DNA of 44,825 nt from Escherichia phage Gluttony_ev152: sequence record NC_073087.1; one strand, written 5' to 3'. The notes under the pieces were generated by a model. That model worked only from the letters and a program-made list of their open reading frames with translations. It ran no database searches and was not told the DNA's origin. Shown piece after piece: positions 5,840 to 41,887 of the stretch (its first letter is position 1; each line of letters starts with the position of its first letter). The translations under genes were made by a program, and so were the position numbers.

Positions 5840-6118
5840 CTATGCGACCAATTCAGCAACCAATAAATCGCAGTCGGATATGTTGTCGATAACGCGAACG
5901 TCAGCACCGCGGCGGGCCATTCGATCATGTTCACGTACCTGGTGCGGCTTAGGTTTTCCTCCGGGGCGCTTCACTTCGACGAACACTATTTTGCCGTTGA
6001 TGATAATAATCAGGTCGGGCGCACCCGCGCGCCCCTCCCATGCCAGTTTTCGGCAGAATCCGCCGACCTCTTTCACCCGTTTCATCAGGTGACTTTGAAT
6101 CTTGCCTTCTGGTGTCAT
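5840..6118 (-). CDS. VRR-NUC domain nuclease
   Basis: PDLIIIINGKIVFVEVKRPGG fits the PD-(D/E)XK VRR-NUC signature; ATG overlaps the polymerase stop (TAATG). Confidence 0.65.
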   Translation of the reverse strand: MTPEGKIQSHLMKRVKEVGGFCRKLAWEGRAGAPDLIIIINGKIVFVEVKRPGGKPKPHQVREHDRMARRGADVRVIDNISDCDLLVAELVA

Positions 6119-8409
6119 TACTTCCTGTACCTGTACATGATGTCGCCTTCGGCGGCAAGTGGGAAGCCCTTCGCCCAAATAGGCAGGTCGCACATCAGCG
6201 CGCAAAGCTCCTCGGTCGTGTAGTCGTCAGTATCCGGCACTTCGGTGATCAATTCATCATGCACCGACAGGACGATTTTATACCCCGCAGCTTCAACGCC
6301 AGGCATGGACCACGCGAGAATATCGCGACACAACGCCTGTACGATGTTCTCCGTCAGTTTGCCGCCGTAGGTATACTGGAATCCCCACTGGCGCGTCGTC
6401 TGATTCTCGCCCTGATATTTAATGCGTGTGCTGGTGCGCTTCTTGCCGGTGTCTTCGTCAATCTCGGTAGTGACAGACAGCGCGATGCCGGGGTAGCTCA
6501 TGATGCGCCCCGACGGCAACTCAATTTTCAACCACCACCCCGCGGCGTCCGGGTCGTCGCGCTCCTCGTCGAAGGTTGGGTCGTGCTTCGCCTTCGTACG
6601 GACAATCTTGAGCGCTTTTCTACCGTCCGGGCGAACGTTCGCGCCAGCCCAGTATGCTTTGCCAGGATTGCGGATTGCACACAACACCGCGTCCTCAAGC
6701 TCGGCCCAAAAGGCTACCGTCTTCGGGTGCGCCTCACGCCACATACGTTTGATTGCGTCACAAGTAAGCCATACGTTTTTCGGCAGTATGTATGTTGGGC
6801 GCTCGTCTTTCTTACCTGGCTTCGGCGGGCGTTTCGCTTCGTTAATGCGGGCGTACTCATAGCCGCGTTTCGCCGCCGCCCAAATGTGATCCGGGAACGT
6901 GCCTTTCATCACGTCCGCCATAGTGTAAAGGTCGAGGCCCAGGTTTTTAGCGAACTGCAAGAACGCCGCGACGCCGCCACCATAGCCCAGTCCCAATTCG
7001 CACGCCTTACCAATCTGGCGTAAGTCCTTGCGGTTGGCTTTAATGTAATCCGGGTCGAGGCCGAACATCTTACCGGCAGTCTCGCAATAGATATCGCGAC
7101 CGGCCTTAAAGACCATTAACGCTGTTTTCTCGCCAGCGATCCAGGCAAGGCCGCGCCCTTCCACGTTGGAGTAGTCAGCTACGACAAACTTCTTGCCCTT
7201 TGCAGGGATGATGCACCCGCGAACGGTCGAGGCTGTCAGCTTCGATATGTCATACGCCCAGTGCGCTTTCCCACGTAACAGGGAGTTGATTCCGTTGGTG
7301 AGCATGTGCGACCGGACCCAAAAAGCGACGTCGCTCTCGCCTTCGCGGCGCTTAATCTTCCCTTCGTGGTCGTCGCTGTACTCGCCGCGTGCCAGGTTTT
7401 GAGGTTGAAAGCCTTTACCGGCCCAGCGTAGCGTGCGCTTTGCCCCACCATACTGAAGACAACCACGGCGGCGACCATCGGCGGACAGGCCATTGACAAG
7501 CGGATTGTATTTAGTAGATGCCGTTGATGACGCACCGAGGCGCATTTCGATAAGCGCTTTGCCCTCGTCCGGGAAGTCCGGGTCTTCCAGTAGGTCGTTT
7601 AGCGTGGATTTCTGCGCGTTGTGTATCGTGAATGCTGGCGCAATATCACGCAGGATTGGCAGGAAGTCATTGCCGGTCAGCTTACCGCCAAACCGCTCCC
7701 AGGCTTCTTCCTTCAATTCTTCCTTATGCGCCTGCACCGCTTTGATCGCGGCGTTCGCCAGGTCAACGTCAACGTAGAAGCCGCGGTCGTTAATCAACTG
7801 GTCGATGAGCAGGATTTCATCTTCCTTTGGTGAGTTGCCCCAGTCCGGTATGCGCCAGTAGACTTCACGCATGGCAACAATATCCAGCGCGGCATAGCGC
7901 AAGAATTTGGCCCATTCTTCGGGGTGCGTCTCGCGTGTGTAGCGGCGGATTTTGTAGGTCTTAGGGGTGGGCTTACAGAATCGTTTAATCAGCGCCTTGC
8001 CTGCCTTATCCTTCGCGTGCTCTGCGTCAACGCCCAGCACCTGGCACTGCATATCGAGGCTACCGGGCAGCGCGTGGCGAAAGGCCATAATCATGGTGTC
8101 TTCGATCTGGCTTACCGGCAGGTCAATACCCCACTTCTCGCGAATAACCAGGCGGTCAAACAGTAGGCCGTTAGCCATCACGATTTTTGCTTTCTTGCGG
8201 GATACATGGCGGAGCGCTTTGCGCAGTTCACGCGGCATTGTGGGGGATTCAGTGCAATCCCATGTCTGCACGCGGCCCTCGTCGATGGCGTATGTGCAAA
8301 TCATAATCTCGGTGGTTGGGTGCTCTGCGTAGGCGTACGCCCCAACTTTCTTCAGGTCCACCCCGCTAAATGTCTCGGTGTCGAGAAACAGGCGTTCGAA
8401 GTCTTTCAT
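6118..8409 (-). CDS. DNA polymerase, family A (PolI-like) with 3'-5' exonuclease domain
   Basis: 763-aa ORF; N-terminal LFLDTETF exo motif; C-terminal SVHDELITEV polymerase motif; largest minus-strand gene. Confidence 0.9.
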   Translation of the reverse strand: MKDFERLFLDTETFSGVDLKKVGAYAYAEHPTTEIMICTYAIDEGRVQTWDCTESPTMPRELRKALRHVSRKKAKIVMANGLLFDRLVIREKWGIDLPVSQIEDTMIMAFRHALPGSLDMQCQVLGVDAEHAKDKAGKALIKRFCKPTPKTYKIRRYTRETHPEEWAKFLRYAALDIVAMREVYWRIPDWGNSPKEDEILLIDQLINDRGFYVDVDLANAAIKAVQAHKEELKEEAWERFGGKLTGNDFLPILRDIAPAFTIHNAQKSTLNDLLEDPDFPDEGKALIEMRLGASSTASTKYNPLVNGLSADGRRRGCLQYGGAKRTLRWAGKGFQPQNLARGEYSDDHEGKIKRREGESDVAFWVRSHMLTNGINSLLRGKAHWAYDISKLTASTVRGCIIPAKGKKFVVADYSNVEGRGLAWIAGEKTALMVFKAGRDIYCETAGKMFGLDPDYIKANRKDLRQIGKACELGLGYGGGVAAFLQFAKNLGLDLYTMADVMKGTFPDHIWAAAKRGYEYARINEAKRPPKPGKKDERPTYILPKNVWLTCDAIKRMWREAHPKTVAFWAELEDAVLCAIRNPGKAYWAGANVRPDGRKALKIVRTKAKHDPTFDEERDDPDAAGWWLKIELPSGRIMSYPGIALSVTTEIDEDTGKKRTSTRIKYQGENQTTRQWGFQYTYGGKLTENIVQALCRDILAWSMPGVEAAGYKIVLSVHDELITEVPDTDDYTTEELCALMCDLPIWAKGFPLAAEGDIMYRYRK

Positions 8410-8591
8410 TGCTTTATCCTCACTACGGCGTCAGCGCTGCCGATCATGGCGAAGATGCCGTCTGACAGGGCGATCTCTTCGCCGTTGTTGCGAATCTCGG
8501 CAACTGTGAAATATTCCCCCAGTAGCTTGGACCATACTTGCATTCCGACTTTTACTTCGCTGGCTTTAATACGCATTTTTCATTGTCCTAT

Positions 8592-8617
8592 TAAAAAGCC
8601 CGCTTAATGCGGGCTTG
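8592..8617 (-). terminator. intrinsic terminator (minus strand)
   Basis: Forward AAAAAGCCCGCTTAATGCGGGCTT; minus-strand hairpin GCCCGC/GCGGGC plus T-run after SSB-like gene. Confidence 0.6.
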
Positions 8618-8634
8618 AATAGTGGGCTTTGCCC

Positions 8635-9438
8635 TTAACGGCGGCGACGTTTGCGTGGTGCTTCGTCTTCGTCGTCGTCCTCATCTTCGTCATCGCGTGG
8701 CTTACGACGTTTGCGAGGTTTTTCATCTTCCTCATCGTCGTCGTCATCGCGGCGCTTGGATTTCTTGGACTTGCGCGGCTTGTCATCTTCATCATCGTCA
8801 TCACGACGTTTTGACTTCTTAGCCTTGCGCGGTGCTTCGTCTTCGTCGTCGTTGTCCAGGTCTTCATCGGAGCAAGAAGACCCGCCACCGCCGAAGGCTT
8901 CACCGTCATCACGGAAGCGTAAACCCAGCAAGCCAGCGCCGAGTCCCTTGCCGTTGGTGTTGTTCCACGCCCAAATATCAAGGGACACGTTGCAATAACA
9001 ACCAGAGTAGATCTCCTGGCCTTCAATCTCGTCGCCGTCTATGGTCAGACCTTGTTCAGTCTGCTTCTCGCCGAGTGACGTTTGAATGATTGGTTGTTTG
9101 AACGATTTGGCGTTGATATACAACATGCCTTCGAATTCTTCGGTTACTTCATCGCGCTCGTCGCCGTCGCGAACTGCACATTCCTTAGAATCCTGGGCGT
9201 AGTGGCGGTCCATCCACTTATCGGCATTCTTCTCGGATTTCAGCTTATCGGTGAGCACTGCGCGCGCTGCCGCTTCCACTTTGTCCACCTGCGGATCTTC
9301 TTTATCCAGAAGAATCACGGCACGGTATGCCGGTTTTTGTCCATCCTGTTTAGGGGTATCACGTTCCCAAATTTTCAGGAAGCATACGCGCACATTTTTC
9401 AGGTTGACTTTAGCCATTTTCCAATTCCTCATTTTCAC
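8635..9438 (-). CDS. DUF2815-like phage single-stranded DNA-binding protein with charge-block repeat tail
   Basis: Position between polymerase and Cas4-like nuclease as in DUF2815/DUF2800 replication modules; C-terminal 90 aa of alternating poly-acidic and poly-basic blocks; sigma70-like promoter upstream (9483-9511). Confidence 0.6.
   Translation of the reverse strand: MKMRNWKMAKVNLKNVRVCFLKIWERDTPKQDGQKPAYRAVILLDKEDPQVDKVEAAARAVLTDKLKSEKNADKWMDRHYAQDSKECAVRDGDERDEVTEEFEGMLYINAKSFKQPIIQTSLGEKQTEQGLTIDGDEIEGQEIYSGCYCNVSLDIWAWNNTNGKGLGAGLLGLRFRDDGEAFGGGGSSCSDEDLDNDDEDEAPRKAKKSKRRDDDDEDDKPRKSKKSKRRDDDDDEEDEKPRKRRKPRDDEDEDDDEDEAPRKRRRR
8640..8870 (-). repeat. low-complexity GA/GAC-type repeats encoding acidic/basic tail of SSB-like protein
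   Basis: Reiterated TTCGTCTTCGTCGTC and GCGTGGCTT/GCGCGGCTT units on forward strand. Confidence 0.5.
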
Positions 9439-9482: not shown

Positions 9483-9511
9483 AATCTACTTGGTTGCGTC
9501 TGAGCGGTCAA
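9483..9511 (-). promoter_or_regulatory. sigma70-like promoter candidate, TTGACC-N17-TAGATT (minus strand)
   Basis: Hexamers read on minus strand upstream of SSB-like gene; GCAACCAAG motif in spacer and just downstream of -10. Confidence 0.45.
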
Positions 9512-9750
9512 GCATTTTTATTAAAAAGATTTCGTGTCACGTAGTTGGTGGCGTTCTCGATCCAGCTTAACGGCGGGCGGTCGATGTTCTTCCCCACCCA
9601 GTCGACGGCAGCGTCGCTATATCCGTCGTCCAGCCAACGGGTTGGATGACGAATCATCCAGGCCACCATCAACACGCCTTGCACGCAATGCAGGATAAAG
9701 CCCAGCGCGCCGAGCAAAAACATCAATAAGATTGCGAATACTTTATTCAT
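9508..9750 (-). CDS. small membrane protein
   Basis: 80 aa with N-terminal hydrophobic helix FAILLMFLLGALGFIL; overlaps start of downstream gene. Confidence 0.45.
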   Translation of the reverse strand: MNKVFAILLMFLLGALGFILHCVQGVLMVAWMIRHPTRWLDDGYSDAAVDWVGKNIDRPPLSWIENATNYVTRNLFNKNA

Positions 9751-11173
9751 TGCTTAAGTCCTCGTCAGTAGCTACAGACCACGCAGGGCGCGGGTCGTCG
9801 ATGGGTGCTAATACCGGTTTAGCTGGTGCGCGCGTGATTTTATCACACAACTTTGCCCACACTTTCGGCTTCTCGTCCTTCAATACCTTCTCGGCATCAG
9901 TAGGGCTGAGTAATGTTTCTTTGTACATAACATCGCGCTTGATCCGGGCCTTCGTGAAGATTTCAATCACTTCGCTTTCGTCCGCCCACTTGCGGATCCC
10001 TTCCTTACCGGCAACCATTTTGAGGCCCAGCGATTCGCCATCGCCAGCCATAACCGCCTTGAATACCGCGGACTCGATAGCCTTGATGTGCTGGCGCATT
10101 GCGTCTAAACCTTCATACGCCTTGCGCAGTTCCGCGGCAGTCATAGCGCCGGAGGCCGCTTCTTTCTTGCCACGCTTCGCACGTCGTGCCGCTTTGCGGG
10201 CTTCGCGGGCCATATTGCGGTCATGATTGGCGCATTCTTCCTCTGTCGCAATACTCACGTCGTCGCCCAGGTCTTCGTCTGTTGCCGTTGGTTGGGTCAT
10301 CGTGTCGATTGCGGCCTTAGCGCGGGCGCTACACTGATCCGCAAATCTGCACCACTGACACGCATCAACGCTCGGTCGGAAGTCGGCACGGGTGAGTCCC
10401 TTTTTGCCGCGGGCGTACGCTTCCAGGGCGGCGATAGCACGCTTGGACGCAAACTTCGCGAATATCTCCAGGGCTTCTACCGAAATATCCCACTCCGACG
10501 CCCCGCCGCAATACGGCTGGAAGATAACCAGGCGCACGGTCGTGATGTCGTACATGGATTGCAGCTTGCGCAGCAGGCCGAGCGCATACAGCATAAGCTG
10601 TTTGTTTTCTTTCGCCTCGACCTTATGCCGCCCCGTCTTCAGGTCGCCAACAATCAGCATGTACGTGCCGTCGGTCTTCTTCATGACCATGACCATATCC
10701 GCAGTGCCGAACGTCTTAACCCGGTTGCCGTCGATCTCGAAGCCAGAGTGTAGGACGCGGGTCAGATCGGCGCGCATCTCAAGCTGAACAAACTCCGCCA
10801 CTTCGAGGAGCGGTCGCCAGTGGTCGATGTACGCGTCGCACTGTTTCACCATGTCGTCGTTGACCAGTACGCCGCCTTTCGGCGCTTTCGGGTGCGCCTT
10901 TACCGGCCCCTTACCTTCGTTCTCGACGTAACACCCTTTGTACGTCTTAGCGGTTATCAGCTTCTCACCGGCGATAATACGGTTTAGCACGACTTCAGAT
11001 ACGGTGTGCATACTCGTACCGTTAATCGCCGCTTGCCCGGATTCGTTCGGGATACCCTGTTCTACCACCAGGGCGGCGGGGCAACCCATCCATTTTTTAG
11101 CACCGGATGGCCCGAGTAATGAATGTTCCGTATTGCTACCGGATTGCGTTTTACGTTTTGGTTTAATCGCCAT
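9743..11173 (-). CDS. PD-(D/E)XK nuclease, Cas4/DUF2800-like
   Basis: 476 aa; cysteine cluster CQWCRFADQC typical of Cas4/RecB-family Fe-S nucleases; conserved neighbourhood with SSB and polymerase. Confidence 0.7.
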   Translation of the reverse strand: MAIKPKRKTQSGSNTEHSLLGPSGAKKWMGCPAALVVEQGIPNESGQAAINGTSMHTVSEVVLNRIIAGEKLITAKTYKGCYVENEGKGPVKAHPKAPKGGVLVNDDMVKQCDAYIDHWRPLLEVAEFVQLEMRADLTRVLHSGFEIDGNRVKTFGTADMVMVMKKTDGTYMLIVGDLKTGRHKVEAKENKQLMLYALGLLRKLQSMYDITTVRLVIFQPYCGGASEWDISVEALEIFAKFASKRAIAALEAYARGKKGLTRADFRPSVDACQWCRFADQCSARAKAAIDTMTQPTATDEDLGDDVSIATEEECANHDRNMAREARKAARRAKRGKKEAASGAMTAAELRKAYEGLDAMRQHIKAIESAVFKAVMAGDGESLGLKMVAGKEGIRKWADESEVIEIFTKARIKRDVMYKETLLSPTDAEKVLKDEKPKVWAKLCDKITRAPAKPVLAPIDDPRPAWSVATDEDLSNE

Positions 11174-11661: not shown

Positions 11662-12180
11662 TTAATCTTCCAGTTCGAAATAGGTTTCGACGATTTCTTT
11701 TAGCTCTTTGTGGAAGTCTTCGACGTCGTCATCTTCCAGCTTGGCGATTGATTTGATCTCGAACGATTCCAGCAGGTCGTCGAATTCGTCGTTCGCATCG
11801 TCGTCGTCACCACCGGCGATAATCGCGGCATACTGTTTGATCTCGTCGCGCATCTCTGCCAGCGGATCGGCATCTTTCTTACCTTTGCCTTTCGCCGGTG
11901 CTTTTTTAGACTTAGCCGGTTTTTCGTCTTCGGCGTCTTCGTCGTCGTCATCTTCTACGACTTCTTTTTTGGCCTTACCCTTCGCCGGTGCTTTTTTAGC
12001 TTTAGCCGGTTTTTCGTCTTCGGCGTCATCGTCGTCATCTTCGACAACTTCTTTTTTGGCCTTAGACGGCTTCTTGTCTTCCTGTTTACCAACGGCAGCG
12101 CCAACGGTTTCATAATGTTTAGCGATGGTTTCCAGTGCTACTACGCCGCGAGTGATCAGGTTTACGATTTGCTCAAACAT
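11662..12180 (-). CDS. acidic/basic charge-block repeat protein
   Basis: ATG at 12180 with GGAGATATACC upstream; two tandem 31-aa repeats KKEVVEDDDDDAEDEKPAKAKKAPAKGKAKK; first gene after the leftward promoter. Confidence 0.6.
   Translation of the reverse strand: MFEQIVNLITRGVVALETIAKHYETVGAAVGKQEDKKPSKAKKEVVEDDDDDAEDEKPAKAKKAPAKGKAKKEVVEDDDDEDAEDEKPAKSKKAPAKGKGKKDADPLAEMRDEIKQYAAIIAGGDDDDANDEFDDLLESFEIKSIAKLEDDDVEDFHKELKEIVETYFELED
11880..12070 (-). repeat. tandem repeat of about 93 nt in charge-block protein gene
   Basis: Two near-identical units (CCTTCGCCGGTGCTTTTTTAG...TTCTTTTTTGGCC), each encoding one 31-aa repeat. Confidence 0.6.
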
Positions 12181-12923: not shown

Positions 12924-15188
12924 ATGAGCTTGATTAAATTCGCTGTAACAAAACCCGCTAAAAAAGGCGAAAAAGCCAGGGCGGAAAACTTCCAGATGAC
13001 GACCGATGAGTTTTTCGAATTTATCAAAGATGCGAAAGAAATATCCTCGGTGCATATCAACAAGACGGAAGATAAAGCCGAGTATGCGCGCCGCAAGCGT
13101 AAGGCCGATGGCATCGTGGCGTATACCAGTGACGGATTGCGCCGCAAGACCAGTGCCGTGGACCGCTCGATCCTGTTCTTCGATATTGACCGCACCGACA
13201 CCCGCACCCTGCGCCGCTGCCGTAAGGCGTTCATCGACGCGGGTCTGGAACACGTATTTCACACCACCACCGGCGACCGCCACCCGCTGAAGGGCGGCAC
13301 GCGTTGCGCCCGTTTCCTGGTGCTCACTGACAAGCCTGTACCGGCTGAAGACCTGGGCCGCGTCCAGTATGCACTATTACACCAACTGGGCCTGTCAGAT
13401 GTGGACTTCGACGATTGCACGAAAGACACTAACCGCCTTATGTACCTACCACACCAGCAGTCTGTTATTAAGTGCCACTATGGCAAGCGCGCCCGCGTCC
13501 GTCGTCTGCTCCGCCTGGCTGATAAGCTGGGAGTGGAAAAAGAGGAAGTACGCCGCGAGCTTACCCAGGGCGACGACGCAGTGGCAGACGGCATTCTGGA
13601 CTGGTGCTTCCAGGCCGGATTCGAGGAGTTATCTTCTGGTCGCGGTTATGAAGTGCCGTGCCCGAACGAACATCTGCACAGCGGCGAAGGGTCGACGGCT
13701 ATCATGGTCAAGGATGGCGAGATCCGTTTCAAGTGTATGCACACCGGCAACGAGTGTTGCTCGGAGCTAAATAGACACCAGCACCTTGCGCTACGTCTCA
13801 TCGGGATACCGGACCACCTGAACGTCGAACCGCACAACATGTCACGTAAGCAAATCGCCGCCATCCTCCCAGGGCTGGACGACGAGGAAGTCGAATCCTT
13901 ATATGAACATATTGTTGATGCGGTTGGCGACGGCGAAGAATACGGCGTGTGCACCGATGCGGATCTGGATAACGAGCCGGTTGCGCTGTTCAGTAAGCAC
14001 GACCCGATTATCGAGGGGTTGGTTAACTTTAAATCAACCTGGTATATGGCGGGTGAGTCGAACATCGGTAAATCGTTCTACGTGCTGGGGCAAATGGGTG
14101 CGGTTGCCGCGGGGATTCCGTTCGGTGGCGCGAAGGTCGTCCAGTCTCATTGCTTCTATTTCGACGCGGAAGGTGGCGAAGCCTCTAACCAGCGCAAAGA
14201 AGCATTGCAGATTAAATATGAGCACGACCTGGACAAGCTGCACATTATCGATCTGCAATCACGCGGCTGGGATATCACCAGCAAATCCGGCTTGCGTGAA
14301 GTTATCAGCTTCATCAACCGCACCGCTAACGGCGAGCCGGTTGGCCTGGTGGCGTTCGACTCACTCAACCAGACTGTTGCGCTGCGGTCCGCCGATGCAA
14401 AACCGTTCGACGAGAATAACGCCAGCGATATGGGTGAAGTGGTCAAAGCGCTGAAGGCCATTGCGGAAAATACAGGCGGCAGTGCGGGCGTCATCCACCA
14501 CCCGGCGAAGGGTGCAAACGGCAGCAGATCTCCCCGTGGGTCCGGCGCGCTGCATGGCGCTGTCGATTCTGCGTTCTTCCTGGAGCAACCGGACGACAAT
14601 CAGCCGGGCCAATTGAACCTGTATCACGAAAAGGCACGTAACGGCATCAAGCAAGCGCCGCGCGGCTTCGTCCTGCTCAAGTGCAAGGTTAAGGTGGATC
14701 TCCGCAAGTCCGAAGCGTTCGAATCACACCAGTCCACCAGCACCGGGCCTGACTTCGGCGACGTGGTTGCCGGTTGGGACGTCAAGCCAATTGCATCCAC
14801 GCCACGCGACGAGACTCTTTATCTCGTACCGGTCGCCCTGGCACCGTTCGCCATCGAACAGGCGAAGGCCGCGGGCAAGGCCGCAGTTAAGGATGAGAAC
14901 GCCGCAGGACCGCGCAATGAAAAAGAGAAAGTGCTTTATGCGGCACTGGAAAAACTGATGGAAGATAACCCGGACCATACCGGATTCAGTAAATCGGCAA
15001 TTGTCCGCCAGGCGGGATTGGCAAAAGGTGGCACATCGACGAAGGCAATAGACGATATGGTCGAGCGCGGCGTGCTTGGGTTTTACACAGACCCACACAC
15101 CGGGGCCATCTATGGGTCGTCTAATATCGTCATCAAAACGAATATACCCATCACGCTTTCGGCTACCGATGACGACCTGAAAGATTAA
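12924..15188 (+). CDS. primase/helicase (RecA-like P-loop ATPase domain)
   Basis: 754 aa; Walker A GESNIGKS; IHHPAKG motif typical of RepA/AAA_25-type helicase domains; N-terminal region may be the primase part. Confidence 0.8.
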   Translation: MSLIKFAVTKPAKKGEKARAENFQMTTDEFFEFIKDAKEISSVHINKTEDKAEYARRKRKADGIVAYTSDGLRRKTSAVDRSILFFDIDRTDTRTLRRCRKAFIDAGLEHVFHTTTGDRHPLKGGTRCARFLVLTDKPVPAEDLGRVQYALLHQLGLSDVDFDDCTKDTNRLMYLPHQQSVIKCHYGKRARVRRLLRLADKLGVEKEEVRRELTQGDDAVADGILDWCFQAGFEELSSGRGYEVPCPNEHLHSGEGSTAIMVKDGEIRFKCMHTGNECCSELNRHQHLALRLIGIPDHLNVEPHNMSRKQIAAILPGLDDEEVESLYEHIVDAVGDGEEYGVCTDADLDNEPVALFSKHDPIIEGLVNFKSTWYMAGESNIGKSFYVLGQMGAVAAGIPFGGAKVVQSHCFYFDAEGGEASNQRKEALQIKYEHDLDKLHIIDLQSRGWDITSKSGLREVISFINRTANGEPVGLVAFDSLNQTVALRSADAKPFDENNASDMGEVVKALKAIAENTGGSAGVIHHPAKGANGSRSPRGSGALHGAVDSAFFLEQPDDNQPGQLNLYHEKARNGIKQAPRGFVLLKCKVKVDLRKSEAFESHQSTSTGPDFGDVVAGWDVKPIASTPRDETLYLVPVALAPFAIEQAKAAGKAAVKDENAAGPRNEKEKVLYAALEKLMEDNPDHTGFSKSAIVRQAGLAKGGTSTKAIDDMVERGVLGFYTDPHTGAIYGSSNIVIKTNIPITLSATDDDLKD

Positions 15189-40924: not shown

Positions 40925-41887
40925 ATACATATTCGGGATGACGAGTAGCGGTGTTGGTACTGCAATATTTTTACTTGGCATCTGGAATTGCTGCCGTGAG
41001 TAGTTGCCGATGACGCGGTTTTTAGCGACGCGCACATTATTACCCGCCATGCGTATGCCGTTCATGCGGACGTGGTTATAGCCACCGTTGTTCTGAATCA
41101 GTGCGCCGGTGTATGAAAGCTGGATCAGGCTGTTTCCAATATTCTGGTCGCCCGTTCCGATGTTAATAGTGCGGTCATATACGAACGGCTTGTTCACCGT
41201 CGAGAACGTAACCTGATTCTGGTTATTCGTCATGGTGATTCCGGCCCCCGGAGTGGGTGGTGTGTTGTTGAATATCACCAAATCCATGTCCACCGAAGCC
41301 GCCACATCGTCGATGCCTCCATAGGACGCGTTGCGGACGATAATACTGCCGCCATCGAAGCCTACTGATACGTTGCCATCATCCCATCGGGCGAACGGAA
41401 CACCGCCAACCGGCAAGGCCATACTACCGTTGACGCGCACGCGCTGTGCGTATCGGCAGGTCATTAGCTTAGACACGTTGGATATGGCGGTGAAGTCCGT
41501 CGAGTTAGCCACCAGTAAACCTGCGTTGCGCGAACCAACCGGCAGCACTTCCATTATGACGCCCGCCCATTGTGGTAAACCAGAGTACGCGCCATACGCA
41601 TCCTCCCCGCGCAGGGTGATACCACTATTACCGTTGCGAGTAACCGACGTAACGTAAAACGGGTCGGGAATTACCAGGGTCTGGTCAAACACCTCAATCA
41701 CTTCTACCGGGCGAGTGAGCGCGACGATGACCTGCGACCCATCCGTAAGCGGGGTGTTAATGGTTAGCGTCTTGTTGGACTGTGCCCGCTGGTTAAAGCT
41801 GGTGCAGTATGACGGCGCGCGGAGTCCCGCGGTTATCTCCATGCGCGGCCTTCCGTCGTTATAGTCGATAAGTATTCCAGCGCCCAT
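40922..41887 (-). CDS. hypothetical Asn/Gly/Thr-rich protein (beta-helix-like)
   Basis: Reverse-oriented; starts right after the lipoprotein gene stop (ATG 41887 with GGGAG RBS, alternative GTG 41896); repeated N/G/T-rich segments; no signal peptide. Confidence 0.5.
   Translation of the reverse strand: MGAGILIDYNDGRPRMEITAGLRAPSYCTSFNQRAQSNKTLTINTPLTDGSQVIVALTRPVEVIEVFDQTLVIPDPFYVTSVTRNGNSGITLRGEDAYGAYSGLPQWAGVIMEVLPVGSRNAGLLVANSTDFTAISNVSKLMTCRYAQRVRVNGSMALPVGGVPFARWDDGNVSVGFDGGSIIVRNASYGGIDDVAASVDMDLVIFNNTPPTPGAGITMTNNQNQVTFSTVNKPFVYDRTINIGTGDQNIGNSLIQLSYTGALIQNNGGYNHVRMNGIRMAGNNVRVAKNRVIGNYSRQQFQMPSKNIAVPTPLLVIPNMY

Follow-up and report, generated by a model that had tools for sequence, protein, structure and literature searches.

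Alternating acidic and basic blocks in the predicted disordered tail of a Dhillonvirus single-stranded-DNA-binding protein

The C-terminal tail of an SSB (a protein that binds single-stranded DNA) is, in textbook form, an acidic, disordered peptide carrying a hydrophobic tip, through which DNA binding is gated and the replisome recruited. The genome record of Escherichia phage Gluttony_ev152 (NC_073087.1; 44,825 nucleotides (nt), all of which is referred to here as the window) encodes an SSB with a tail of alternating acidic and basic blocks that ends in arginines, which raises the question of what such a tail is, how it came about and what it might do. On comparative analysis, it is a predicted disordered, selection-maintained elaboration of the acidic regulatory tail of its family; the reading that we favour as a whole, at about an even chance, adds to this a mechanism in which single-stranded DNA would expose its basic blocks.

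The OB-fold core and its charge-block tail

The region was matched by 153 phage records at 80-99% nucleotide identity, the best being Escherichia phages Zumzum, slur06 and jat (97.8% each). Since nearly all of these are E. coli Dhillonvirus siphophages of ~44 kb, the 44.8-kb window is essentially an entire Dhillonvirus genome. The listing of open reading frames (ORFs) placed the SSB on the minus strand at 8635-9438, giving 267 amino acids if translation began at GTG; this GTG, the start in the preliminary description of the locus, gives way to a likelier ATG 21 nt downstream. This ATG, at 9417, is accompanied by a GAGGA Shine-Dalgarno sequence at 9426-9430, and the orthologues of phages SECphi4 and SECphi18 are given from MAKVNL onwards. 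Thus, the gene most likely starts at ATG 9417 and specifies 260 amino acids, GTG 9438 being probably not a start.

Residues 3-193 of the product matched PF10991 (Enc34_ssDNA-bd, formerly DUF2815) at E = 2.8e-31 and 109 bits, against a cut-off of 26, over positions 2-173 of the 176 in the profile. The protein also matched phrog_112, 'Gp2.5-like ssDNA binding and annealing protein', at E = 6e-55, while NCBIfam gave no match for it or for the phrog_3127 protein described below. In the PDB, phmmer retrieved the DUF2815 structures 4klk and 4jg2 and the Enc34 SSB 5odj (E 1e-9 to 1e-11). An AlphaFold model built on a 38-sequence alignment (A1) had a predicted local distance difference test score (pLDDT) above 89 up to about residue 172, with 154 residues at 90 or more, and below 60 beyond. 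The top PDB matches of this model by Foldseek were 4klk, 5odl/5odj/5odk, 4jg2 and 1je5, all with a probability of 1.00, the only significant folds being 4klk (E = 3.6e-12), 5odl (the Enc34 SSB bound to single-stranded DNA (ssDNA), E = 1.4e-11) and T7 gp2.5 (1je5, E = 2.3e-6). Bacterial SSB was not matched significantly in either sequence or fold (1qvc and 1eqq, E >0.9 by Foldseek), and the E. coli-type tip DDDIPF is absent. In the HMMER alignment, which is uncertain in loops, the Enc34 ssDNA-contact residues Tyr30, Arg112 and Trp150 plausibly correspond to F13, K103 and the W148-A-W150 segment, Tyr37 aligns with T21, and the DNA-stacking Tyr156 falls in an NTNGKG loop without an aromatic residue. 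The DUF2815 core proposed in the preliminary description was therefore borne out by the profile search and by a modelled ssDNA-binding fold. Considering both, the protein is almost certainly a gp2.5/Enc34-type ssDNA-binding replication protein of Dhillonvirus, and probably a strand-annealing one as well. The gene, its oligonucleotide/oligosaccharide-binding (OB) fold core and the parts of the tail are as follows.

8635..9417, minus strand: SSB gene, 260 amino acids plus stop (ORF translation, PF10991, phrog_112, orthologue starts)
8893..9417, minus strand: OB-fold core of gp2.5/Enc34 type, residues 1-175 (AlphaFold, Foldseek, phmmer at E ~1e-11)
8872..8892, minus strand: Gly-rich hinge GGGGSSC, residues 176-182, after the family-wide DGEAF (A1 alignment, pLDDT <50)
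8857..8871, minus strand: SDEDL (residues 183-187), the acidic-Leu motif, conserved as the opening motif of the family tail
8803..8871, minus strand: unit 1, residues 183-205, SDEDLDNDDEDE-AP-RKAKKSKRR (direct reading)
8749..8802, minus strand: unit 2, residues 206-223, DDDDEDD-KP-RKSKKSKRR, inner and dispensable (72% identity with the neighbouring copy of the 54-nt repeat)
8695..8748, minus strand: unit 3, residues 224-241, DDDDDEEDE-KP-RKRRKPR, an inner dispensable unit (repeat family D2)
8638..8694, minus strand: unit 4 and terminus, residues 242-260, DDEDEDDDEDE-AP-RKRRRR and the stop (45 nt 82% identical to unit 1)

The charged tail proper comprises residues 183-260, i.e., 78 amino acids (nt 8638-8871), or 85 with the Gly hinge included; the 90 residues given in the preliminary description were an approximation, although the alternation of acidic and basic stretches that it described is indeed there. 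With 36 Asp/Glu, 28 Lys/Arg and 5 Pro, 64 of the 78 residues (82%) are charged, and the net charge is −8. The tail reads as four acidic-to-basic units, namely SDEDLDNDDEDEAPRKAKKSKRR, DDDDEDDKPRKSKKSKRR, DDDDDEEDEKPRKRRKPR and DDEDEDDDEDEAPRKRRRR; it ends in RKRRRR, with no hydrophobic residue past L187. Against 10,000 shuffled tails of the same composition, the charge-segregation statistic was 0.43 compared to 0.08 +/- 0.03 (z = 10.2), a value reached by none of the 10,000, and the runs of charge sign numbered 8 where 32 +/- 4 were expected (shuffle minimum 18). The kappa value of the tail is 0.54. AlphaFold predicted it to be disordered, with a pLDDT below 60 throughout and below 50 from residue 176; the sole secondary structure was a helical turn at residues 184-187, which are also the only gap in the sub-50 run of residues 176-199. 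In its high charged fraction, segregation of opposite charges and predicted disorder, the tail has the properties of a blocky polyampholyte region.

The units are also apparent in the DNA. Tandem Repeats Finder reported a 54-nt period with 2.3 copies and 72% identity at 8727-8852; the inner units are 72% identical to each other (8729-8782 versus 8783-8836), and the first and last are 82% identical over 45 nt (8825-8869 versus 8651-8695), in agreement with the preliminary statement that the tail is built from reiterated nucleotide units. Sixteen further Dhillonvirus copies, with cores 85-100% identical, were translated, and all had in-frame tails of 2-4 units in proteins of 224-261 amino acids, the length differences being whole-unit indels. 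All 16 tails open with SDEDL/TDDDL, and the 15 close copies finish in DEAPRKRRRR. Unit 1 is kept in all 16, the shortest (224 amino acids) retaining its acidic part and the beginning of its basic block; unit 2 is missing in four natural variants (L009, L011, L012 and L013), and unit 3 is missing in L012 and partly deleted in L002. These sequences point to recombination between the 45-54-nt repeats as the way in which unit number changes.

A few database copies have frameshifted tails, at differing positions (P0002, P0006 and phage vB_EcoS-101114B2, locus L027, 1180-1995). These run into a Thr/Met/Lys-rich frame beyond the usual stop (...VKGKAHYSSPLIAGFLLGQ and a stop), with DEAPRKRRRR and its stop intact in another frame. 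Such copies reflect either erroneous sequencing of the repeat or mutants that have naturally lost the tail and, if real, would show the distal tail to be dispensable.

Two possible origins of the blocks were tried and rejected. Frameshifting does not produce the acidic and basic blocks from each other, the other frames being Thr/Met/Lys-rich or Ser-rich and not of opposite charge; and for exchange of charge-block modules with the phrog_3127 or exonuclease genes, blastn and blastp of the tail returned short low-complexity matches only.

Relatives and the canonical form of the tail

A homologue search with the core only found 176 sequences, 120 of which were listed. Among these 120, every full-length, non-frameshifted match of at least 43% identity (213-290 amino acids) had an alternating acidic/basic tail, whereas matches of 38% identity or less were mostly 170-190 amino acids long, with a short acidic tail and a hydrophobic tip (DDSFFD, AEDFV, DDDIAF). 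The preliminary description had allowed that the tail might be absent or unconserved in homologues; it is in fact carried by all 16 Dhillonvirus copies and in distant genera. By the Nei-Gojobori method over aligned codons, dN/dS (the ratio of nonsynonymous to synonymous rates) was 0.13 for the tail and 0.065 for the core at dS ~0.4-0.45, and the value for the tail indicates that those of its residues that are present are constrained by purifying selection.

The more distant relatives form a series in unit number, with one unit in Jerseyvirus Ent1 (C-terminus ...SVDDLEDDEDETPRRERRRNR) and in Kagunavirus K1H (C-terminus ...VNDLEDDEEDEAPRRERRRR), two followed by an acidic end in phiEap-2, three in eiAU-183, and up to four in Dhillonvirus. 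From this series, the Dhillonvirus tail is a tandem iteration of an older unit of the form acidic – x-Pro – poly-basic. The preliminary description, which saw the repeats, had missed that the single unit being iterated is still present in Guernseyvirinae. The SSBs of the Guernseyvirinae (Ent1 gp38 and K1H ORF33), phiEap-2 and Eiauvirus eiAU-183 resemble that of the window in core insertions, acidic core, hinge, an S-x-D-D-L motif, the acidic – x-Pro – basic syntax and in having lost the hydrophobic tip, and the helicase-primases and exonucleases of these phages carry the acidic-Leu motif as well. There are also differences: the one-unit tails of Ent1 and K1H are 29 residues long, against up to four units in Dhillonvirus, and some of the Guernseyvirinae, phiEap-2 and Eiauvirus relatives finish, unlike the window protein, with a short acidic stretch past the last basic block (…RRRRNRDED). 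Poly-Arg is the commonest terminus across the clade, and a subclade ends in acid. The junctions have a fixed polarity, with Pro at 66 acidic-to-basic junctions and at 0/44 basic-to-acidic ones.

For comparison with the family at large, 1.84 billion representatives were searched, giving 2,409 members at E <=1e-3, and tails were classed in the best 150. Canonical tails made up 123 of these 150, and 122 of the 123 had a hydrophobic residue among the last three, which supports, for the canonical relatives, the preliminary statement that SSBs normally end in a short acidic tip. Such tails close, within ~10 residues of the first motif, on a further acidic-hydrophobic tip. Alignment A1, in which F175 and G177 do not vary, has both the hinge (DGEAFGGG) and a motif ~12 residues later throughout the family; this motif reads x-D-(D/E)-D-L for the clade of the window and DDF/EEF-D-L for canonical members. 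The form x-D-x-D-L was found in 63/63 clade proteins checked (one with Val for Leu), at 12-15 residues past the hinge Phe (median 12; 57 proteins measured). It is to be noted that net charge is likewise conserved: it was −7.4 +/- 3.4 in 64 mixed-charge tails and −7.2 +/- 2.2 in 32 canonical ones (Mann-Whitney p = 0.20), and acidic and basic counts correlate (r = 0.80, slope 0.80). The window tail is therefore a PF10991 tail in being predicted disordered and net acidic and in keeping SDEDL, but not in its terminus, where the hydrophobic or aromatic tip is lacking. This retention of hinge, acidic-Leu motif and canonical net charge, together with loss of the tip, had escaped the preliminary description.

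Mixed-charge tails accounted for ~11 of the best 150. Five belong to the Dhillonvirus/Guernseyvirinae clade, and six are independent lineages with canonical cores (P0169, P0174, P0194, P0200, P0226 and P0245); P0088, P0108 and P0119, from the core-only search, are likewise mixed-charge. Since independent lineages carry such tails, mixed-charge expansion between the first motif and the tip is recurrent in the family. The acidic-hydrophobic ending was kept in several of these lineages (P0119, P0194 and P0245) and lost throughout the clade of the window. Among these three, the metagenomic P0194 has a 171-residue RD/RG/SR tail ending in DDLV on a canonical core, one metagenomic tail consists of DDDDDRGSRSRSR repeats ending in SDLVD, and another has five DEDD-RPRRRRSR units ending in DEDDDI.

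A shared acidic-Leu motif and the competing readings

The SSB gene lies in a replication module, with a family-A polymerase gene (PolA) at 6118-8409 and the following two genes on its other side.

9743..11173, minus strand: DUF2800 / PD-(D/E)XK exonuclease (PF10926 at 226 bits, phrog_69)
12924..15188, plus strand: replicative helicase-primase (phrog_3228, AAA_25)

The order of helicase-primase, DUF2800 exonuclease, SSB and family-A polymerase was kept in 10 related loci, with SSB identity down to ~37%. When the window was scanned for the SSB motif, only four matches were found: the SSB itself, the C-terminus of the helicase-primase (...LSATDDDLKD) and two in the exonuclease, one at its C-terminus (...SVATDEDLSNE) and one internal (QPTATDEDLGDD..., followed by a basic stretch, REARKAARRAKRGKK). 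As a control, a C-terminal acidic-DL regular expression was applied to 933 ORFs of at least 60 amino acids from the window and nine diverged loci (three metagenomic loci of 47-50% SSB identity, eiAU-183, phiEap-2, Ent1, K1H and two more metagenomic loci). Only 18 of the 933 matched, and 17 of them were helicase-primases (9/10 loci) or exonucleases (8/10); the remaining one was a small ORF between SSB and polymerase in locus L018, ending in ATDEDLE. In the diverged loci, the helicase-primase and exonuclease have acidic-D-L at the C-terminus, with 0-4 residues after it. Bipartite DDF...DL[VA] tails are shared by the SSB and exonuclease, and in BcepC6B also by the primase, in the canonical modules of phages BPP-1 and BcepC6B (L025 and L026), with the primase and exonuclease of BcepC6B both ending in GSDLA.

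With the acidic-Leu motif at the C-termini of the helicase-primase and exonuclease too, a shared docking site is suggested, and SDEDL is putatively a peptide that docks onto one common partner, the likeliest being the polymerase. The helicase-primase gp4 of phage T7 has an acidic, Phe-terminated tail that binds the polymerase sites bound by the gp2.5 tail; these two T7 tails, sharing polymerase surfaces, parallel SDEDL on the SSB, helicase-primase and exonuclease here.

Other charged segments occur in the same module. An internal insertion of the exonuclease (10150-10260, minus strand) resembles one unit of the SSB tail, with TATDEDLGDD..., an acidic stretch and then REARKAARRAKRGKKE; the Dhillonvirus exonuclease has 476 amino acids, versus 417-465 in most relatives. 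A 172-residue charge-block protein (phrog_3127, function unknown; 11662-12180, minus strand) has a helix at its N-terminus and two EDEKPAK(A/S)KKAPAKGK(A/G)KK repeats; its C-terminal domain, which is acidic, helical and conserved, holds DEFDDLLESF, similar to the first tail motif of canonical SSBs. Its homologues in related loci keep both ends and vary in the charged linkers; a single-sequence AlphaFold model of it was of low confidence (pLDDT 52).

In the favoured reading, that of an elaborated acidic regulatory tail, the parts are the Gly hinge, SDEDL, two to four units of the form acidic – x-Pro – basic, and a poly-arginine end that replaces the hydrophobic tip, the units having been made through tandem duplication of a single ancestral one. 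Added basic blocks would be matched by added acid, leaving the net charge at about −7 as in canonical tails; with the charge so kept, the tail should still be able to occupy or gate the OB groove and to present SDEDL. There are experimental precedents for both activities. In Enc34 ORF6, the tail lies in the groove of a neighbouring molecule, and its removal permits binding of double-stranded DNA (dsDNA); the T7 gp2.5 tail competes with ssDNA for the OB fold, and binds polymerase and helicase. By these precedents, gating of the OB groove and specificity for ssDNA would fall to the acidic parts of the window tail, and recruitment of a partner to its first motif. Judging purely from the anatomy, the basic blocks of the free protein may be neutralised by the neighbouring acidic blocks, and ssDNA may displace the tail and thereby expose them. 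The exposed blocks could then contact DNA phosphates non-specifically, or the acidic tails of neighbouring SSB or partner molecules, and the outcome would be more cooperative coating, strand bridging, annealing, and multivalent assembly of replication-recombination proteins.

Several observations weigh against this account. Natural two-unit phages (224 amino acids) exist, and the number of units is therefore not critical. Dissimilar mixed-charge tails (RD/RG, RS, KP-rich) are found in at least six other DUF2815 lineages and, because they arose repeatedly, a composition-level or spacer role would fit as well as a specific one. The published coding substitutions that escape defence systems, described in the next section, are all in the OB core and none in the tail, and it is the OB fold of T7 gp2.5, not its C-tail, that is required to activate Retron-Eco8 (2026 Retron-Eco8 paper). 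Lastly, the core net charge is −6.1 in the clade compared to +2.4 in canonical members, but the idea that the basic blocks supply the positive charge missing from the acidic OB core was downgraded: the contrast amounts to one evolutionary event at the level of the clade, and P0088, with a mixed-charge tail on a +2 core, is a counter-example.

Among the alternatives, the one that survives best, though we regard it as unlikely, holds that the inner units are largely neutral filler produced by slippage or recombination, soluble and roughly charge-balanced, with function residing in the hinge and SDEDL and perhaps the last unit. It accommodates the 2-4 units seen among phages with at least 95% identical cores, which differ by clean whole-unit indels at repeat boundaries, as well as the unrelated mixed-charge sequences that have expanded there in six or more other lineages (several with the hydrophobic tip retained), and the freedom of the tail from escape mutations. 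It is difficult to reconcile with purifying selection of almost core strength on the aligned tail codons (dN/dS 0.13 at dS 0.45), or with the fact that Dhillonvirus, Eiauvirus and Guernseyvirinae, at core identities as low as ~37%, all keep one acidic-to-basic unit or more. Conservation extends to the x-Pro junction and, in most lineages, to the poly-Arg end (a subclade having an acidic end instead), and neither the first nor the last unit is ever lost.

Phase-separation-like behaviour, raised in the preliminary description, is compatible with the high blockiness and predicted disorder of the tail. In E. coli SSB, condensates form by way of the disordered linker, and in Caulobacter the formation of BR-bodies is driven by the alternating charge blocks of RNase E. 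The window tail brings to mind both the C-terminal domain of the latter and the linker of the former, being, like them, disordered by prediction, highly charged and segregated into blocks; it differs from condensate-forming charge-block regions in being net negative, and in being very short in close relatives. That the tail actually serves as a condensate scaffold, driving coacervation of the SSB with ssDNA and charged replication proteins, seems improbable to us. Its composition (82% charged, kappa 0.54, predicted disorder), the similar EDEKPAKAKK... blocks of phrog_3127, the acidic-to-basic insertion inside the exonuclease, and the multivalency that a docking motif common to three proteins would give are all in line with a scaffold. 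Single-unit relatives such as Jerseyvirus, however, with a 29-residue tail, have little valence and yet the same architecture, and the strongly negative charge of the whole protein (core ~−6, tail ~−8) speaks against homotypic coacervation unless a counter-ion partner is present. The literature search turned up nothing on condensates formed by gp2.5-type SSBs.

A broader and similarly improbable scheme would have the clade rewired as a whole. The SSB, helicase-primase and exonuclease would bear a common acidic-Leu peptide for one hub; the SSB tail would be a self-masked, multivalent acidic/basic 'velcro' that, with phrog_3127 and the exonuclease insertion, assembles a cooperative, possibly condensate-like body on ssDNA; and repeat number would tune the assembly.

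The polarity of the interaction could also be the reverse, with the basic blocks of the SSB, masked by its own SDEDL and acidic blocks until ssDNA is bound, receiving the acidic SDEDL tails of the helicase-primase, the exonuclease and phrog_3127. The acidic-Leu tails of the partners are conserved across exactly the clade that has basic blocks in its SSB, and the unusually acidic OB core of this clade would be a poorer receptor for acidic tails than canonical cores are. We nevertheless consider such a hub quite doubtful, since BPP-1 and BcepC6B share acidic tails without basic blocks in the SSB, so that another receptor must exist there; the SSB bears the motif itself, which argues that it is a ligand like the others; and the contrast in core charge is a single phylogenetic event.

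The 'DNA/protein mimic' behaviour suggested in the preliminary description, in which the acidic runs would imitate DNA as a decoy for host DNA-binding or defence proteins, could draw on the high Asp/Glu density and on the interaction of the SSBs of this group with defence systems; it is effectively excluded, as the acidic runs, of 7-10 residues, alternate with basic runs of equal length and the segment that holds them is predicted disordered, the tail has neither the folded scaffold nor the long regular carboxylate array of an Ocr-like DNA mimic, the escape mutations are all in the OB core or the promoter, and the retron senses the OB fold of T7 and not the tail. Even weaker is the possibility that the tail is an artefact, whether of sequencing or assembling a repeat or of calling the wrong frame: frameshifted database copies do indicate that the repeat is prone to error or mutation, but on the sequence evidence this, too, is effectively excluded by 153 independent phage records that match the region, by in-frame translation of all other copies with the same start and end motifs, by a synonymous/nonsynonymous pattern that supports this frame, and by presence of the tail in distant genera.

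Defence links, known systems and significance

The protein, its family and an experimentally studied orthologue are known already, and that the orthologue is a defence trigger was overlooked in the preliminary description, which otherwise placed the core correctly. In the Dhillonviruses SECphi4, SECphi6 and SECphi18, the orthologue was predicted to be a gp2.5-family SSB; 10 of 12 phages escaping Retron-Eco8 were mutated in the SSB promoter or coding sequence, and co-expression of the SECphi4 SSB with Retron-Eco8 was toxic (Stokar-Avihail et al., bioRxiv 10.1101/2022.08.27.505566). Table S2 of the same study lists T56P, D25_P29dup and promoter changes for Retron-Eco8 and, in the next block, which by table order is that of ShosTA, T21P, F95L, F106V and N152H (bioRxiv 10.1101/2022.08.27.505566). 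The SECphi4 SSB, which is of the same family as the window SSB and near-identical in its core, is cited in a later paper as binding retron msdDNA.

The flanks of the gene contain two signals.

9483..9511, minus strand: sigma-70-like SSB promoter, TTGACC, 17-nt spacer, TAGATT (consensus scan)
8590..8616, minus strand: terminator-like hairpin 3' of the SSB stop, AAGCCCGC-ATTAA-GCGGGCTT, then TTTAAT (direct reading)

Two Retron-Eco8 escape positions of SECphi18 could be placed on this promoter, each to within ~1 nt, the strand convention of the table being ambiguous. Position 41725 falls at the 3' end of the -10 hexamer, in identical sequence; position 41752 falls at the second base of the -35 hexamer, which there overlaps the TGA of an upstream 80-residue ORF. 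The change at 41752 was scored as a stop-loss of that ORF (bioRxiv 10.1101/2022.08.27.505566); because it lies in the -35 hexamer, this escaper may act via lowered SSB expression.

The 3' signal is a GC hairpin with a T-run, and a 'terminator' is annotated beneath the match in phage CS16; the hairpin fell short of the T-run rule of the consensus scan. Over the whole window, Rfam (at gathering thresholds) and ARAGORN gave no matches, and the region is thus not accounted for by an RNA element. ORFs that overlap the tail antisense to it or in other frames (8651-8998 on the plus strand, poly-Ser; 8604-9026 on the minus strand) were dismissed as by-products of the GAN/AAR/CGN repeats, the synonymous/nonsynonymous pattern favouring the annotated frame. 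Between the SSB and polymerase genes there is also a 56-residue ORF (8406-8576, minus strand; phrog_10102, function unknown), and E21fs escape mutations are tabulated for a near-identical protein in the block preceding the Retron-Eco8 rows (Stokar-Avihail et al.). In Jerseyvirus Ent1 (Salmonella phage vB_SenS-Ent1, locus L023; 7676-10774 and 11368-13833), the polymerase and an SNF2-type helicase of this module are annotated as interrupted by inteins, which were not seen in the window.

Among the closest known systems, the ORF6 SSB of Enterobacter/Hafnia phage Enc34 (5odj, 5odk, 5odl) shares with the window SSB the Pfam family, the fold and the type of replication module. Both have a disordered C-terminal segment, predicted in the case of the window, after a comparable hinge (…DDEPFGE… in Enc34, …DDGEAFGGGG… here). 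The acidic part of the window tail has its best experimental model in the Enc34 tail, which enforces binding of ssDNA over dsDNA. The Enc34 tail differs in having 16 acidic residues among its last 29, no basic blocks and the ending ...WDEDEV, as against a 78-residue tail with 28 Lys/Arg and an RKRRRR end; the window core, moreover, has ~18 extra residues and is net acidic.

T7 gp2.5 (1je5) has the same variant of the OB fold, with a structure-based identity of only 12-13%. An annealing role is annotated for gp2.5 and for this SSB group alike, and for both the Retron-Eco8 and ShosTA escape mutations lie in the OB core. The gp2.5 tail is purely acidic and ends in ...DEDGDF, whereas the window SSB has no terminal hydrophobic residue; the terminal aromatic residue of the gp2.5 tail is its key contact.

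In T4 gp32, cooperative binding needs a basic Lys/Arg-Ser/Thr motif (KRKST, 'LAST'), and the C-terminal domain, which is acidic, both gates the binding of DNA and brings in partners. The composition of LAST recalls the PRKSKKSKRR blocks of the window tail, although gp32 has an unrelated fold, no homology, and basic and acidic elements that are at opposite ends of the protein and not iterated.

In the literature searched, no published discussion of an alternating-charge SSB tail was found. Likewise, we found no description of how the tail is built or of its derivation from an iterated Guernseyvirinae-type unit, of a tip lost while net charge stays constant, of the recurrence of mixed-charge tails in the family, or of the acidic-Leu motif that the helicase-primase and exonuclease have in common with the SSB.

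Dhillonvirus, represented in the BASEL and SECphi collections, and several hundred Guernseyvirinae records together form a large and tractable group of coliphages and Salmonella phages that departs from the textbook tail. With no tip, a poly-Arg end, iterated charge blocks and an unchanged net charge, the SSBs of this group contradict a widely repeated generalisation about SSB tails, and the same SSBs are the triggers sensed by Retron-Eco8 and ShosTA. The natural variants of two, three and four units are an allelic series in which charge patterning can be set against cooperativity, annealing and partner recruitment, and the acidic-Leu motif on three replication proteins offers a testable handle on the organisation of the replisome.

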